From NCBI GenBank assembly GCA_963810095.1, contig CAWEMM010000014.1, forward strand, positions 1-64,000: a stretch of DNA of 64,000 nt. The letters are read 5' to 3'. Positions 2,107-9,434 of the stretch are shown piece by piece. Each line of letters opens with the position of its first letter. The stretch's first letter is position 1. This DNA comes from an uncultured Chloroflexia bacterium. GTDB taxonomy: Bacteria > Chloroflexota > Anaerolineae > CG2-30-64-16. Both the position numbers and the translations under genes were made by a program. The notes beneath the pieces are model-generated. The model saw only the letters and a list, made by a program, of their open reading frames with translations, made no database searches and was not told the origin of the DNA.

Positions 2107-3642
2107 TTAGCTGGCTCCGCCGGCCCGGCCCAGCTCCGCAAACCGCTCCTTCAGCGCCGGGTACAGCCCGAGAAACACGCCGTACAGGTCATCATAGATC
2201 TGCCGGTTGGCCGGGTTGGGCAGGAAATCGCACTGTACGGCATAGACTGCCGCTCGGGCCTCCGCAAAGTCGCGATACACCCCCACCCCGACTCCCGCCA
2301 TCATGATGTCGCCCATCGCCGCACCCAGTCCTGCCCGCAGCTGGCGCACCGGCTTGCCCAGCACGTCCGCCTTGATCTGGTTCCACAGCGCGCTCCGAGC
2401 GCCCCCGCCCACGCATCCCATCCCAGACACGGCGAACCCGGCGCTTGCGGCAGCCTCCACGTTGTGCCGCAGGCCGTACGCCGCGCCCTCGAGGATCGCG
2501 CGCACCATGTCCGCTTTCGTCGTGGACAGCGAGAGGCCGAAGAAGACGCCCCGCGCGGCGCCGTCCCAGATCGGCGAGCGCTCGCCGAACATGTAGGGCA
2601 GGAAGACGAGCCGGTTGGCCCCGGGCGGACTGGCGGCCGCCAGCTCGTCCAGCAGTTGGAAGGGATCGCGGCCTGCTTGCTTGCCCCGCTCCCGTTCCGC
2701 GTCCGCCAGCGCGTCGCGCCACCAGCGCAAGGAGCCGCCGCCTGCCGACGACGCGCCGACCGCGAGATACTTGCCGGGCACCCCGTGAACCAGCGAAATC
2801 AGGTCGCGGCCCAGGTAGGGCCGGCTCGAACAGACCAGGACTACCGTCGACTGGCCGGTCATTTCCACCGCGTCGCCGTCGGCCAGCAGCCCGCCTTCTA
2901 CCGCGGCCGCCGTGCCATCGATGGACCCGGCAATGACCGGCGTCCCTTCCGCGAGGCCCGCTTCCCGGGCTGCGGATCGGGTGACGTGCCCGATGACCTC
3001 GTCGCAGGCTGCCAGGGGCGGCATGTGGGCCAGGTCGAGGCCCATGCGGTCCGCGAGGGCCTCCGAATAGGCCAACTTCGCGCTGTCGAAGAACAGCGTC
3101 ATCGGTCCGCTCGAAACGTCCATCCGCCGCGCGCCCGTCAACCGCATGCCGACGTAGCCGTTCGACTGCAGCACGGCGGCCGTCTGGCGGTACACCTCCG
3201 GCTCGTGCTCCTTAACCCACAGCCACTTGGGTGCGAAGTAAGAGGAGTCGATGCGCCCGCCGTTGATGCGCGTGATGTCCGCCTCGCCCACCCGCTCGGC
3301 CAGCGCACGGCACTGCGCGTCGCTCCGGCGATCCAGCCAGATGATCGCCGGGCGCAGAGGCGCGCCGCCCGCATCCACCGGCACGGCGCCGATGCCCTGC
3401 CCACTCACCCCGATCGCGGCGATGTCGCTGGCCGAGACGCCCGCGGCCGCGAGCACCTGGGGCACGACCGCGCAGCAGGCGCGCCACCATTGCTCCGGAT
3501 CTTGCTCGGCCCAGTTCGGATGCTCGAAACTCGTACCGTATTCCTGGCTCGCTTGCGCCAGCAGCGTGCCGTCGGCGTGGGCCAGAACGGCCTTAAGCCC
3601 GGTGGTGCCGGCGTCGATGCCCAATAAGTGCGTAGCTGTCAT
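2107..3642 (-). CDS. FGGY-family carbohydrate kinase (xylulokinase-like)
   Basis: LGIDAGTTGLK, EQDPEQWW, AIIWLDRR, FLPYMFGERSP, RAILEG and GGGARS motifs. Confidence 0.9.
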   Translation of the reverse strand: MTATHLLGIDAGTTGLKAVLAHADGTLLAQASQEYGTSFEHPNWAEQDPEQWWRACCAVVPQVLAAAGVSASDIAAIGVSGQGIGAVPVDAGGAPLRPAIIWLDRRSDAQCRALAERVGEADITRINGGRIDSSYFAPKWLWVKEHEPEVYRQTAAVLQSNGYVGMRLTGARRMDVSSGPMTLFFDSAKLAYSEALADRMGLDLAHMPPLAACDEVIGHVTRSAAREAGLAEGTPVIAGSIDGTAAAVEGGLLADGDAVEMTGQSTVVLVCSSRPYLGRDLISLVHGVPGKYLAVGASSAGGGSLRWWRDALADAERERGKQAGRDPFQLLDELAAASPPGANRLVFLPYMFGERSPIWDGAARGVFFGLSLSTTKADMVRAILEGAAYGLRHNVEAAASAGFAVSGMGCVGGGARSALWNQIKADVLGKPVRQLRAGLGAAMGDIMMAGVGVGVYRDFAEARAAVYAVQCDFLPNPANRQIYDDLYGVFLGLYPALKERFAELGRAGGAS

Positions 3643-3776
3643 CTGGGAATACCTCAGGACCCTTTCGGGCGCACGGCCGCGGCGTGCAGAGGCGGCGCGC
3701 TCTCGGCGGATGATAGCACAATCTTGCCCCGTAGCCCGCCCACGACTGACCGCCTATGTGCGCCTGACAAAGACCG

Positions 3777-3823
3777 GTCGTGTAAGGGCGAGACATCCCT
3801 CAGATGCCTCGCCCTTACACGAC
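3777..3823. repeat. REP-like palindrome (GGGCGAG(G/A)CAT...ATGCCTCGCCC family)
   Basis: gtcgtgtaagggcgagacatc-cctca-gatgcctcgcccttacacgac; the same core occurs at 56233-56268. Confidence 0.75.
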
Positions 3824-3943
3824 GGTTGGGCTCAGGGGCACGGTCAGAGACCGGCCCCAGCTGATTCTCGAAGCGTTACTGAGGCTTCGCGTTCCCAACC
3901 GCTCCGTGCTAAACTACGGCCACCGCGATCAAGGAGGCAGACC

Positions 3944-4714
3944 ATGGCCTGGCTACCCGACGGCACTCCGCTGCCCGGCCGGCTATTCATCGTCGAGGGC
4001 ATCGACGGCTCGGGCAAGAGCACCCAACTCGACCTGCTCCACAAGTGGCTCGTCAGCGAAGGTTATCTCGTCGTCTTCACCGAGTGGAACTCGTCGCCGA
4101 TTGTCCGCCGCACCACCCAGCGGGGCAAGAAGGAGCAACTGCTCACCCCGCTCACTTTCAGCCTGATCCATGCGGCCGACCTGGCCGACCGCATGGAACG
4201 CCAGGTGATCCCGGCGCTCCGGGCCGGCGCCGTCGTCCTGGCCGACCGGTACATCTACACCGCGTTTGCGCGCGACGGTGCGCGGGGCGTGGAGCCGAAA
4301 TGGGTCCGCAAGATCTACTCCTTCGCGGTCCGCCCCACGGTCGCCTTCTATTTCCAGGTCCCGCTCGACGAGGCGCTGCGCCGCATCCTGGTGGGCCGGC
4401 CCGCACTGAAGTGGTACGAGGCGGGCATGGACTTGGGCCTGAGCCCCGACCCCTACGAGTGTTTCCGTCTCTTCCAGAAGCGGATCCTCGGCCAGTACCA
4501 GGGGATGATCGAGGAGTTTGGCCTGACGGCCATCGACGCGACGCTCCCGCTCGTGTACCAGCAGCAGCAGGTGCGCACGTTGGTCATGCCGCACCTCCGG
4601 AACGTACCGAAGATCAACCCGGCGCCGTGGCGTGAGGTGTTGGCGAAGGAAGGGCTCTACGGACGCTACCTCAGCCTGGGGCAACCCGAGGCGCAGTCGA
4701 GGAGCGAGCCATGA
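3944..4714 (+). CDS. Thymidylate kinase-like P-loop kinase, copy A
   Basis: AAGGAGG SD then ATG 3944. Motifs FIVEGIDGSGKSTQ and LADRYIY; TEWNSS replaces the canonical TREPGG; WYEAGMDL. Confidence 0.88.
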   Translation: MAWLPDGTPLPGRLFIVEGIDGSGKSTQLDLLHKWLVSEGYLVVFTEWNSSPIVRRTTQRGKKEQLLTPLTFSLIHAADLADRMERQVIPALRAGAVVLADRYIYTAFARDGARGVEPKWVRKIYSFAVRPTVAFYFQVPLDEALRRILVGRPALKWYEAGMDLGLSPDPYECFRLFQKRILGQYQGMIEEFGLTAIDATLPLVYQQQQVRTLVMPHLRNVPKINPAPWREVLAKEGLYGRYLSLGQPEAQSRSEP

Positions 4715-5412
4715 CGCGCATCCACTATCACGGCGCGGGAAGCATCCCCGGTTTCGACGCGACCGAGCTGCCCGGCCGCCTCATCGTGTTGGAAGGTACG
4801 GACGGCGTCGGCCGCACCACGCAGGTGGCGCTGCTGCACGAATGGCTGGAGGCGAACGGCTATGCGGTGACGCAGACCGGGCTCGCGCGGTCCTCGCTCG
4901 TCGGGCCGGGACTGCAGCGGGCGAAGCAGGGGCACACCCTCGGCGACGTCACAATGAACCTGTTCTACGCTACAGACTTTGCCGACCGGCTGGAGAAGGA
5001 GATCATCCCCGCGCTGCGGGCGGGCTTCGTCTGCCTCACTGACCGCTACATCTACTCGCTGATCGCCCGCGCACTGGTGCGCGGTGTGGACCGGACGTGG
5101 CTGCGCGACCTGTTTGGCTTTGCGCTGGCGCCCGACGCGGTGTTCTATCTCGAGGCTGACCTCGACCACCTCGCGCCCCGGGTACTGGCCGGCGAGGGGT
5201 TCGACTACTGGGAATCCGGGATGGACCTATACCGCGGCGACGACATCTATCAAAACTGGCGGCAGTACCAGGAGCAGTTGATCGCCCAGTTCCGGGCTAT
5301 CGGCAAGGAATACAACTTCATTCCCATCGACGCCAACCGGTCGGTGCACGAGATCTTCAACGACCTCCGCAAACGCCTCCAGCCCATCGTGCGGGGGATG
5401 AAGCCGCAATAA
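4711..5412 (+). CDS. Thymidylate kinase-like protein, copy B (variant P-loop)
   Basis: ATGA overlap with copy A. Motifs IVLEGTDGVGRTTQ (Lys to Arg in Walker A), LTDRYIY and YWESGMDL. Confidence 0.88.
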   Translation: MTRIHYHGAGSIPGFDATELPGRLIVLEGTDGVGRTTQVALLHEWLEANGYAVTQTGLARSSLVGPGLQRAKQGHTLGDVTMNLFYATDFADRLEKEIIPALRAGFVCLTDRYIYSLIARALVRGVDRTWLRDLFGFALAPDAVFYLEADLDHLAPRVLAGEGFDYWESGMDLYRGDDIYQNWRQYQEQLIAQFRAIGKEYNFIPIDANRSVHEIFNDLRKRLQPIVRGMKPQ

Positions 5413-5492
5413 CGAGGCTGCCACGATCAAGAAACCAGAGATTGTCAACGCGCCAGCCTTCGCTGGCGCAAAACTGTGGTTTCTGCGATCCG

Positions 5493-6423
5493 TCAATATA
5501 CTTCCGGCACAAAGGTCTGGTCGGTGATGGGCGGGCGGACATAGCCGCCGTCGGCCTGGCGCGGGGGCAGGGAGATCGGCTCAGGCGTCAGGTCCTCGTA
5601 CGGAATCAGGCTCAGCAGGTGACGGATCACGTTAAGCCGGGCGCGCTTCTTGTCGTCCGCGTTAACGACGTACCAGGTGGCCTGCTTGATGTCGGTCGCC
5701 GCGAACATCGCGTCCTTGGCCTTCGAATACTCCACCCACTTGGTCCGCGACTGCAGGTCCATCGGGCTGAGCTTCCAGCGCTTGGTCGGGTCTTCGATGC
5801 GCGCCTTGAACCGGCGCTCCTGTTCGTCGTCGCTGACCGAGAACCAATACTTGATCAGGATGGTGCCTGAGCGCACGAGCATACGCTCAAACTCGGGGCA
5901 GGAGCGCAGGAACTCGCGGTACTCGTCCTCGGCGCAGAAGCCCATGACCCGTTCGACGCCGGCCCGGTTGTACCAGCTGCGGTCGAAGAGCACCATCTCG
6001 CCCCCGGCCGGCAGGTGTTGGACATACCTCTGGAAGTACCACTGGGTTTTCTCACGCTCGGTCGGCACACCCAGGGCCACGACGCGCGCATAGCGGGGAT
6101 TGAGCGGCGCCGTGATGGTCTTGATCGCACCGCCCTTGCCGGCGGCATCACGGCCTTCGAAGACGATCACCACCTTCAGCCCTTGCGCCTTGATCCACTC
6201 CTGGAACTTGACGAGCTCGATATTCAGCTTGGCAAGCTCCGCCTCGTATTCGGCTGCCGACATCTTTTTGCGGTGTTCCAGCTTTTCCGGTGCGGCTGCC
6301 TGATCGAGGGCGGCGGGTTGCGCGGCTGGCTCGGCCTGGTTGCCATTTCCGTGCCGCGTCATGAGCGTGCGCATGCTGGGCGTCATCGTGTTTTTCCGCA
6401 TGCTTGTCCTTCTGTTTCGACAT
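5493..6423 (-). CDS. ppk2: Polyphosphate kinase 2
   Basis: FEGRDAAGKGG, WYFQRY, FDRSWYNRAGVERVMGF and KRWKLSPMD motifs. Likely start is ATG 6423 (GGAGG SD), with an N-terminal frameshift. Confidence 0.95.
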
Positions 6424-6463
6424 GAGAACACCTCCGCGTGCGAAAGAGCCTTCTAAGTGGGGC

Positions 6464-9202
6464 TTACGGGGTGGCCAGCGCCAACCCCAGCGAACGACGA
6501 AATTCGACGCCGGTGAGCGCGGCCCACGGCGCGTCGAACAGGCCGAGCAAGTCCGCCTGGATCTGCTGCTGGGTCAGCAGGTAGGCTTCGACGCCCGGCA
6601 TCGGCTCGGGTTTCTTGCGGCTGCGCTGCGCGGTCAGGAAGTCGACGATCAGCCCTTCGGCCACGTGCGCGTCCTGCATGGCGCCCAGATGCTCCTGCAT
6701 CGCCGTGACCTGTTTGATCACGTCCCCTCCGCCCGCCCCCAGCAGCTTGGCGAAGAACTCGAGCGCGTAGCGCAGCCGTTTGCAGTCGATGCGCAGCATG
6801 TGGTACGTCGTAATCGGCGCGGTCGACAGCACCACCTCGTACGCCCGCACCTGCTCGTACCGCTCCATGATCAGGCGCGGGATGACATGCCGCACCTGGT
6901 GTGCGATGGGCTCGCCGGGCGGGACGGCGTTCGCACCCGCGCCCGGTGTCAGCAAAAACGTCCGGAAGTTTTCCACGAAGCGCTGGTAGCCTTCGCCGTT
7001 CAGGTAGTCCAGCAGCTCTGCCGCGCGCCGCCTCACGCTGCCCCGCCCACTGGCCGAGCAGCGGCGCGAGGCTGAGGCCCGTTTCCGGCGCGAGGCTCGC
7101 CTCATAGGTGCTCGCCTTTTCGATGAGCACGTCGAGGTCGCGCACCGCCCCCAGCGTCGCGCCGGCCCGGCGCAGCTCCTTGTTGAACCTGGCGATCGCG
7201 GGCTTTTCGTAGAATGGCTCGAAGACCCGGTAGGCGGCGCGCAGCCGGCGGGTCGAAACGCGCATATCGTGCAGGAACTCGATGTCCTCGCCTTTGCGTG
7301 TCCCGTCCTCGTTCGCCAGCATTTTCATGAAGTGCGTGAACATCACCTTGCGCCCGGCTTCGGCCATGGGCTCGTCGGGCTCGACCGGCGGCAAGGTGGC
7401 GACGGGTCCCGCCGGTTCTGCCGGGGCTTCGGGCGGGGCAGCCGCGGGTTGCTCGCCGGCGGCAGCTTCGGCGGCGCGCCGCGCAGCCGCGAACGTCAGC
7501 TCGTGCTTCAGGTTCTCGCGCCAGTAGCGCGCGCGGCCATTGGCGCGGCGTGTGTCGGCCTCGGCCGCTGGGCCCTCGAGGGTGAGGGTGCACGTTTCGG
7601 ATCCCTTGCACTCTGTGGCAAGGATGCGCGTGCTGCGCTCGCCGTCGTACGTCAGCGCCGACGCGATCTGCAGGAGGCAGGCGAGGGCGATGACTTCCTT
7701 GCGCCGCTTCGGCTCGAGGGCCTCCAGCGCGGGCTCCTTGTTCGGCTTCATCTTGTCGCGCTGCAGCGCCACGATGCAGGCGAGCTCCAGACGGTCCTCG
7801 GTGCTTACGTCGTGCAAGGGCTGCGCGAGGATCAGGTCGCGGCCTGCGCGTTCCGGCTCGACGCTGTCTTGGGACGCTCCCACAGTGGCCAGGAGGGCCG
7901 CAGTGCGCACCAGCTTGCGGCGCTTGCGGGGCAGCCCGTGCACCTTGCGGAGCGCGTCGAACAGGACCAGCGCATTCTCGCAGACGACCCGTGCCGCGCG
8001 GGCCGTTGACCCCGTGCACTCGGCTAAAATCGCCCACGGTCGGGAGACCCTCTTTCGCAGCCCGCTGGCCCTTCTTGCTCTTGGGCGATGGGTCCGGCTC
8101 TGCCTGCGGCGCGGTCCGGGGTCTCGGGCGCCCGGCGTGCCGGTTCAGTTACAGGCGGGGGCGTCGCAGGCGTTGCGACGTGGGCCGGGGCGGCGGCCGG
8201 CTGCGACGGGCTTGCGGGGGGCGTGTGGCCGGCGCACCGACGTGCCCTTGACGGCCGCGGGCGCTGCAGGCGACGCGACGACCGCCGGCTCAGCCGCCGC
8301 AGCCAGTTCCTCGCCCTCCGCCGCGCCCGGCGCAAAGATGCCCATCCGCTTTGCGCGGAACTCGCGTATCCAGAACCGGATCCGGCCCGACGACAGACCC
8401 GTGCGGGCGACGATGTCGCCGGGTCGGCAGGCCGCTGGCCCAACTCAGCACCGCAGCCGCCCGCCGGGCCAGCTCGGCGTCTGCTCCCGCCTCGTAGGCG
8501 GTCAGGTGGCGCCGTTCTTCGTCCGACAGGCCGCCTTCGACCGCCGTTCCGCGCAGGCGAAGCATCTCGAGCGCCCGCACGAACTTGGAGCAGGGCTCCG
8601 GCTGCAGGCCGTGCTCGCCCAGCAGCGCCTCGGCCACCCTTTCGAGGTCGCTCTCGCGTCCGTCCGGCCCCAGCTCGATTTCCAGTTCGTAGTAAAAGGC
8701 GGGCCGCTTGCCCACCACCGCCCGCACTTCGTCCAGGCTCCATTCGCCGACGACGCGTTGGCCCTCGACGAGGTTGGCTTTGGCGCGGGATTGGTTCAGG
8801 TCGAAGAGCGGTTGGAGAGGGGCGCCCCGGGTGATGTCGAGCGCCAGCCGGCGCGCGTCGCTTGGCGGCCAGTCGCGCGGGGTCCAGCTCCAGGGACGCC
8901 AGCGCAACCTCGTGCTCGTCCCGGCGGTGTAGGGCGCTGGCAGGGGCGCCGCCAGCTGCCGCCGCCTCGGCGTCCGGTGCGCTGCCCAGTCCCTTGAGGG
9001 TAGCCAGCACCCGGCCGCTCTGCATGCGCAGGCGACAGGAGAAGCCGGCTCCGAGAAGCCGCCCGTCCGCTGTGTCGTAGTAACGGTCGACGACGTCTAT
9101 GCGTCCGGTCCGCACAATGTCATACCCGGCAACGCTCCGCAGCCGGAGTAGGTTACGGTGCGCCTCTCGATTCGGCACGCGGAACTTGGCTTCGATCTCC
9201 AT
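6464..9202 (-). CDS. CYTH + HTH + Ppx/GppA-type degenerate HD + CHAD multidomain protein, frameshifted
   Basis: CYTH: MEIEAKF...DRYYDT...CRLR...ATLKG...YELEIEL...SKFVRAL. HTH at about 8335-8530. Ppx C-terminal-like: LVLFDALRKVHGL...LVRTAALLATVG. CHAD: LHDMRVSTRRLR, LGAVRDLDV, HMLRIDCKRLRY, LGAMQD. Joined across about 5 frame changes. Confidence 0.8.
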
Positions 9203-9434
9203 GCACGTCCCCTGTTCACCAACGAATAACACGGGCAGTATAGCATACGCGAATGTTGCGGATCAAGGCCGGATTTGCGTACGGCCGCTTTGCGGGATCC
9301 TGCCCTCGCACCCTTACAGCTTCACCGCGCGGCGCCATCCGAGGCGTGCACAAGAGCCCTGCTGCCGCTGTCACCCGGGCCGGGCAACCATGTATAATGA
9401 CGCCACTCCTGACGCCTTTCATTCGCGGGGTTTC

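Follow-up and report, generated by a model that had tools for sequence, protein, structure and literature searches.

Hofmann et al. (J Biol Chem, February 2026, PMC12995831; preprint 2024, 10.1101/2024.08.28.610084) reported that two adjacent "thymidylate kinases" of the archaeon Sulfolobus acidocaldarius form a heteromeric, thymidylate-kinase-derived polyphosphate kinase, PPK3. By their account, the catalytic subunit (Saci_2019, cPPK3) makes polyphosphate (polyP) from ATP, has no thymidine monophosphate (dTMP) kinase activity, and forms no thymidine diphosphate (dTDP), and the regulatory subunit (Saci_2020, rPPK3) is inactive alone and raises activity about ten-fold when added (PMC12995831). 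The S. acidocaldarius complex, SaPPK3, was described as alpha2beta2 from size-exclusion chromatography, with a dimer of the regulatory subunit at the core of the published model, and its reaction as reversible, with ATP production out of ADP plus polyP favored; STK_15430 of S. tokodaii (5h70) was named as a cPPK3 homolog (PMC12995831). Here we describe two overlapping genes, called A and B below, in a 64,000-nucleotide stretch of DNA (the window) from the genome of an uncultured Chloroflexia bacterium (GenBank assembly GCA_963810095.1, contig CAWEMM010000014.1, positions 1 to 64,000), and compare them with this archaeal system.

Our analysis favors the reading that A encodes the catalytic subunit, and B the regulatory one, of a bacterial family-3 polyphosphate kinase; to this we would assign a probability of about 0.82. 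The assignment of A as an ortholog of cPPK3 and of B as an ortholog of rPPK3 is supported by sequence, by the tree, by conserved pairing of the two genes, and by neighboring genes of polyP metabolism. The activity of the bacterial pair, the direction of its reaction, the inactivity of B, and the formation of a complex are predicted by homology only. The PPK3 class was known before this analysis, and its occurrence in Chloroflexota had already been listed: Data S1 of the paper gives PPK3 in at least four Chloroflexota, three of them with PPK2 and two of these with both PPK1 and PPK2 (PMC12995831), so that neither the phylum nor the coexistence of the kinases is new. An earlier note, made from the letters of this stretch, had proposed that the pair is an active/regulatory heterodimer acting on polyP or polyP-derived nucleotides rather than dTMP, possibly of an unrecognized PPK class. 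Orthology to SaPPK3 would bear out the heteromer and its substrate; the published complex is a heterotetramer, not a dimer, and the class is not unrecognized, having been published as a preprint in 2024 and as PMC12995831 in 2026.

The products of A and B are paralogs that share 39% identity across 216 residues (E 6e-56). The P-loop is GIDGSGKST in A, with the Walker lysine at Lys25, and GTDGVGRTT in B, with Arg35 at the Walker lysine position. Both proteins carry DRYIY, in which the DRY arginine is Arg102 of A and Arg112 of B, and both have a related motif in the lid region, WYEAGMDL in A and YWESGMDL in B. The TREPGG motif is of the dTMP-binding type; its position is occupied by TEWNSS in A and by TGLARS in B, and TREPGG is present in the canonical tmk of the same genome. 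The basic residues of the A lid are Arg147, Arg152, and Lys156, and at the last two of these positions B has a gap and Asp165, respectively, having gained Arg60 where A has Ser50. The P-loop, DRY, lid, and TEWNSS/TGLARS motifs were all found as the earlier note had described them, and its claim of two paralogs joined by an ATGA overlap holds, the start ATG of B (4711-4713) sharing bases with the stop TGA of A (4712-4714). An AGGAG motif ahead of this overlap completes the layout expected for translational coupling of the two genes. An independent contig, assembled from the short reads of a public run, covers 4514-4794, including the overlap, with one differing base and no gap. At its C terminus the product of A is extended by about 35 amino acids (residues ~222-256), a tail with the pattern W..VL..EGLYGRYL that Anaerolineae-type cPPK3s conserve and that is missing, in the alignments, from Sulfolobaceae-like and other short cPPK3s.

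Profile searches placed both proteins in the thymidylate kinase fold family (Pfam Thymidylate_kin, PF02223; 74.2 bits for A and 73.4 bits for B) and outside the dTMP kinases proper, with scores for the NCBIfam equivalog TIGR00041 (75.5 and 78.1 bits) that lie under its cut-off of 83.25. The possibility that either protein is a PPK2 was ruled out, as a profile search with PF03976 (PPK2) at E <= 0.01 gave no match for A or B. Among solved structures, the best relative of both is 2plr/5h70, the "probable thymidylate kinase" of S. tokodaii (E 2.2e-50 for A and 1.9e-34 for B), and the best matches to canonical Tmk structures reached 4e-16 and 6.5e-13. One of the archaeal loci collected for comparison (L098) encodes a protein identical to the 2plr chain at 213/213 residues, and an rPPK3-type gene adjoins it.

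To place the pair among its relatives, we drew on 600 pattern hits in species-representative genomes, at least 465 of which encode a relative, and used the best 80 loci. Eighteen archaeal pairs, nine of Nitrososphaeria type and nine Sulfolobaceae-like (including L098), came from 301 genomes sampled within the phylum to which a Nitrososphaerales locus belongs. A tree of 104 rows, comprising every third bacterial locus, the 18 archaeal pairs, 13 canonical tmk sequences, and A and B of the window, was built by a quick IQ-TREE search with Shimodaira-Hasegawa-like approximate likelihood ratio (SH-aLRT) values as its only support measure. The 91 A-type and B-type rows stand apart from the 13 canonical tmk rows (SH-aLRT 100), and a single clade (SH-aLRT 100) unites all 45 B-type rows, the nine Sulfolobaceae-like rPPK3s and window B among them. 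Window A falls among the bacterial A-type rows. Each of the two window proteins is sister to its counterpart from the nearest related locus (SH-aLRT 99), which belongs to an Anaerolineales metagenome-assembled genome (L005) and has 82-86% identity to A and 80-81% to B by alignment.

The pairing itself is conserved and no product of chance. An A-type gene and a B-type gene occur together in 79 of the 80 related loci, and the remaining locus ends at a contig edge; B lies directly downstream of A in 76 loci and upstream in 3. Three Planctomycetota loci of the Phycisphaerae (L008, L010, and L012) have the order rPPK3-CHAD-PPX-cPPK3, with the subunit genes about 2.6 kb apart. Natural single-chain fusions of A-type and B-type sequences were also found (P0125 and P0065) and, like the conserved pairing, are indirect support for the predicted hetero-oligomer.

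The neighborhood expected of a PPK3 comprises polyP genes such as PPX, CHAD, SixA, Nudix, and Pst. The linkage to polyP genes that the earlier note had wanted surveyed is present: PPX (by its N-domain profile) was found in 50 of the 80 loci, CHAD in 37, PPK2 in 5, and CYTH in 1, and PPX or CHAD in 57. A higher figure for PPX-like genes, 73/80 loci from single-linkage clustering of open reading frames (ORFs), was rejected, since shadow ORFs that overlap B, together with links through CHAD and HD domains, had inflated it. In some loci, the representatives of the neighbor clusters gave Pfam matches to PhoU, to PstS-like and PstC-like proteins, and to a PhoR-like kinase. Three relatives of B (P0146, P0173, and P0175; 650-696 amino acids) join two Tmk-like domains to a Ppx/GppA domain III (HD). 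A further relative of B, of 794 amino acids (P0268), has DUF2252/APH-like parts in addition to a Tmk-like domain and an SPX domain, the latter a domain for sensing phosphate.

In the model that we favor, A would bind ATP or ADP at its intact P-loop, with the DRY arginine and the conserved basic residues positioning the terminal phosphates, and would move phosphate reversibly between polyP and ADP/ATP, the archaeal enzyme favoring the conversion of ADP and polyP to ATP. B, a paralog without the Walker lysine and without two basic residues of the lid, would be produced together with A by way of the ATGA overlap and would bind A, raising its activity as a hetero-oligomer (alpha2beta2 in Sulfolobus). 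The pair lies in a small polyP island that also holds a class I PPK2 and a gene of the CYTH-HD-CHAD type.

Conservation within the family agrees with a catalytic role for A. The Walker lysine and DR[YF] are present in all 98 A-type relatives (98/98 for each). In the joint alignment the Arg152 position is arginine in 97 and lysine in 2 of 99 sequences, and Lys156 is kept in 94/99. Lys25, Lys62, Arg83, Arg102, Arg110, Arg114, Arg147, and Arg152 of A are invariant in a 44-row alignment and kept in at least 97/99 sequences of the joint one. Every family-invariant residue is present in window A and window B. Measured against the Anaerolineales relative, the ratio of nonsynonymous to synonymous change (dN/dS) comes to 0.16 in A and 0.12 in B, with dS near 1; both genes are under purifying selection, B as strongly as A.

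The B-type sequences present a more divided picture. Hofmann et al. give the replacement or absence of the DRX arginine in rPPK3 as the cause of its inactivity (PMC12995831; 10.1101/2024.08.28.610084), and the nine Sulfolobaceae-like rPPK3s are of that kind, with DGY in 9/9, a Walker position that is lysine in 4/9 and arginine in 5/9, tryptophan or tyrosine at the site of B Arg120, and 1.97 changes per column on their stem branch. Outside the Sulfolobaceae, the Walker position is arginine in window B and in all 86 other B-types (77/77 bacterial or mixed, 9/9 Nitrososphaeria-type), and DRY is kept in 85 of these (76/77 and 9/9); 2 of the 79 B-type ORFs from the related loci were left out of the motif counts by a 170-amino-acid length filter. 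Since bacterial-type rPPK3s combine a Walker arginine with an intact DRY, the published cause of rPPK3 inactivity does not transfer to most of the family. The main text of the paper and of the preprint makes no mention of the Walker Lys-to-Arg change, which their supplementary alignments may show. Equivalents of A Arg110, Arg114, and Arg147 are also kept in the non-Sulfolobaceae B-types, and that of Lys62 mostly; Arg60, at the second-to-last serine of the A motif TEWNSS, is found in 84/87, the window included. The lid differs, with a gap at A Arg152 in 45/87 and aspartate at A Lys156 in 75/87. Past Gln187 a 44-row B alignment has no invariant column; in the A alignment, Asp198, Gln206, and Gln207 stay invariant. 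From this pattern we infer that B would lack normal ATP handling and probably retains much of the phosphate-clamping side of the site.

These observations lead us to a tentative proposal about the regulatory subunit, held with well under even odds: in most PPK3s, bacterial and Nitrososphaeral and with the present pair among them, it may be a conserved second phosphate-binding module and not a dead enzyme. Such a module would perhaps grip the polyP chain or read the ATP/ADP state, and the rPPK3 of Sulfolobus could then be a derived, degenerate case, a corollary about which we are equally tentative. A related alternative, that the pair is a PPK3 in which B is no inert scaffold and has a functional phosphate-binding site for holding the polyP chain or sensing a nucleotide or the energy charge, with regulation different from that in Sulfolobus, seems to us unlikely. 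The invariant Walker arginine and nearly universal DRY, the retained arginines together with the gained Arg60, the selection on B (0.12 versus 0.16 for A), and the divergence of the Sulfolobaceae-like rPPK3s in DGY, at the Arg120 site, and in branch length would all suit it. Conserved arginines can equally serve structure or the A-B interface, however, the basic lid residues have been lost from B, and the want of an invariant B column past Gln187 makes ordinary binding of ATP less likely.

The rest of the genome bears on whether the pair could instead serve nucleotide metabolism. Profile searches of the genome (6.1 Mb in 16 contigs, the window being on contig C14) found a canonical tmk at G000:C6:1316499-1317074 (PF02223, 164.3 bits) that carries TREPGG. 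The earlier note had singled out the existence of such a gene as worth checking, and because it lies elsewhere in the genome, the idea that the pair is the only tmk there, which would have undercut that note's proposal, is ruled out. A fourth, weak Thymidylate_kin match (25.9 bits; G000:C1:16990-17460) lies inside an open frame of 635 amino acids. The genome also encodes one PPK1, four PPK2s (one in the window and three elsewhere), and one PPX, and its only CHAD is that of the window. Against this background it is very improbable that A, B, or both are nucleoside monophosphate kinases of altered specificity, acting on a modified or non-thymine (deoxy)nucleoside monophosphate with polyP genes as incidental neighbors. 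Their Thymidylate_kin matches, the public annotation of relatives as "dTMP kinase," and the first report of the S. tokodaii homolog as an unusual thymidylate kinase (10.1101/2024.08.28.610084) would all fit that view. It is opposed by the canonical tmk and the missing TREPGG of A and B, by the failure of the Sulfolobus orthologs to form dTDP (PMC12995831), by a linkage to PPX or CHAD (57/80) far above chance for single-copy genes, and by the existence of Tmk-like fusions to Ppx/GppA domain III.

Several findings weigh against our assignment of the pair to PPK3 as described in Sulfolobus. The replacement of the DRX arginine, the published reason for rPPK3 inactivity, was not found in B, which nevertheless falls in the rPPK3 clade and has a different lesion, the Walker Lys-to-Arg change; because B, like its non-Sulfolobaceae relatives, keeps DRY, its inactivity is less certain than that of the Sulfolobus subunit. 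No ppx, the gene that usually accompanies such pairs, adjoins this one, and the only PPX match of the genome is on another contig. Where related loci have flanks of at least 5 kb on each side (48 loci), a PPX, CHAD, or PPK2 gene was detected with the profiles used in 34, and none in the other 14. With PPK1 and four PPK2 genes already in the genome, polyP synthesis here can be explained without PPK3. Finally, the neighboring CYTH-CHAD gene is out of frame in the assembly, and for this reason the polyP island may be partly decayed.

The immediate surroundings of the pair are summarized in Table 1.

Table 1. Positions of the gene pair, its start signals, and the neighboring features in the window
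Feature	Position	Strand	Remarks
FGGY sugar-kinase gene	2107-3642	-	Nearest to xylulokinase, but below the xylulokinase cut-off; divergent from A
47-nucleotide hairpin, 20-pair stem	3777-3823	no strand	In the 301-nucleotide gap between the FGGY gene and A
Shine-Dalgarno-like AAGGAGG	3931-3937	+	6 nucleotides 5' of the A ATG at 3944; read in the sequence
Gene A, cPPK3-type (putative catalytic subunit)	3944-4714	+	256 amino acids
AGGAG ahead of B	4700-4704	+	Read in the sequence
ATGA start/stop overlap of A and B	4711-4714	+	Read in the sequence
Gene B, rPPK3-type subunit	4711-5412	+	233 amino acids
Single-domain (class I type) PPK2 gene	5493-6431	-	PF03976 353.6 bits; TIGR03707 380.2 versus cut-off 301.8
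CYTH-HTH-Ppx/GppA domain III (HD)-CHAD homolog	6453-9232	-	From tblastn with the 851-amino-acid L005 ORF

Downstream of the pair, the picture drawn in the earlier note, of A and B converging on ppk2 and a CYTH-CHAD gene, is correct for the PPK2 gene, whose stop codon is separated from that of B by 80 nucleotides. It does not hold for a single intact CYTH-CHAD gene. The homologous region was recovered by tblastn as five pieces in three frames (9211-8876, 8892-8422, 8417-8328, 7994-6873, and 7048-6473), and Pfam searches found a partial CYTH and a partial CHAD in separate ORFs, with CHAD in two frames. The region may be a pseudogene with frameshifts, or its broken frame may come from insertions and deletions in the assembly; contigs assembled from four public DNA runs of low depth give no cover at 8063-8786, and no RNA run was listed among the public runs that match this DNA. 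The Anaerolineales relative has the same gene order as the window (A, B, PPK2, CHAD, CYTH), so that the place of PPK2 next to the pair is occupied there too, and its last gene is one 851-amino-acid ORF with CYTH, helix-turn-helix (HTH), Ppx/GppA domain III (HD), and CHAD domains. This multidomain architecture is itself unusual.

On the upstream side, the hairpin has a near-copy with three mismatches on another contig of the genome (G000:C6:659831-659877) and is probably a small repeated palindromic element. A search over 3600-4000 gave no Rfam family at gathering score, and a promoter scan of 3500-5700 gave no sigma-70-like sites, a result that is uninformative for this phylum. Positions 1-2000 are poorer in G+C (fraction 0.52-0.55) than the remainder of the first 14 kb (0.63-0.73). 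They also hold a GmrSD_N restriction-endonuclease domain in two parts, on separate minus-strand ORFs (1162-1620 and 902-1219), and the region may be a foreign or decayed defense gene. That the whole locus is a decaying remnant, with the pair disused and the organism relying on PPK1 and PPK2, can be set aside as highly improbable, for although the out-of-frame CYTH-CHAD gene, the lack of an adjacent ppx, the low G+C and split GmrSD fragments 2-3 kb upstream, and the presence of PPK1 and four PPK2s would agree with it, A and B are intact, have ribosome-binding sites and all family-invariant residues, and show a dN/dS of 0.12-0.16 against a nearest relative with the same gene order.

The distribution of the pair suggests that PPK3 is spread much more widely in bacteria than the "few bacteria" of the published abstract (PMC12995831). 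The best 80 loci come from Chloroflexota, Planctomycetota, Acidobacteriota, Armatimonadota, Nitrospirota, Thermodesulfobacteriota, Verrucomicrobiota, Bacteroidota, Gemmatimonadota, Actinomycetota, and Nitrososphaerota. Within the phylum of the window, an A-type match (E <= 1e-40) was found in 55 of 301 sampled genomes, its own included, and in 46 of the 244 of high quality, with a distribution that is very patchy by family. By their source names, close relatives of A point to Chloroflexota/Anaerolineae. A protein search with A gave at least 8000 candidate relatives, and the named sources among the matches listed say "dTMP kinase"; for B, 226 cluster representatives were found at E <= 1e-30. 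As public databases call PPK3 genes "dTMP kinase," polyP metabolism is mis-annotated in many genomes.

PPK3 has been characterized in one archaeon only, where energy buffering is the role proposed for it (PMC12995831). A genome that encodes PPK1, four PPK2s, and a predicted PPK3 is well suited to asking what PPK3 contributes. What is locally notable about this locus is an rPPK3-type subunit with a Walker arginine and an intact DRY, neighbors (a PPK2 gene and a CYTH-HD-CHAD gene) that replace ppx, the coexistence of PPK1, PPK2, and PPK3, and the neighboring gene that is out of frame.

Three known systems set the terms on which the pair can be understood. With canonical Tmk (TIGR00041), A and B share the PF02223 fold family, the P-loop, and DRY; they differ from it in scoring under the equivalog cut-off, in the absence of TREPGG, in a lid insertion, and in forming a separate clade. 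The resemblance to PPK2, and especially to two-domain class II enzymes with an inactive N-terminal domain, lies in the predicted use of polyP by a P-loop kinase built from an active and a degenerate unit, an analogy also drawn in the discussion of the published work (PMC12995831). Unlike PPK2, A and B have no PF03976 match, and the PPK3 units are separate proteins.

The Sulfolobus systems are the closest. B keeps the DRX arginine and has exchanged the Walker lysine for arginine, where the Sulfolobaceae-like rPPK3s have DGY and either lysine or arginine at the Walker position, and the C-terminal tail of A is absent from the Sulfolobus-type cPPK3s. Neither ppx nor sixA adjoins the pair, and PPK2 and the CYTH-HD-CHAD gene stand there instead. 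Most PPK3 hosts are without PPK1 and PPK2 (PMC12995831), whereas the host here is a bacterium that has both as well. In common with SaPPK3 and STK_15430, the window holds adjacent paralogs of the thymidylate kinase fold, one with an intact P-loop and DRY and the other altered at the catalytic site, which form a clade apart from canonical tmk in a genome with a canonical tmk elsewhere. CHAD is linked to the pair in both settings, the lid is longer than in the canonical tmk of the genome, and TEWNSS is common to A and STK_15430.

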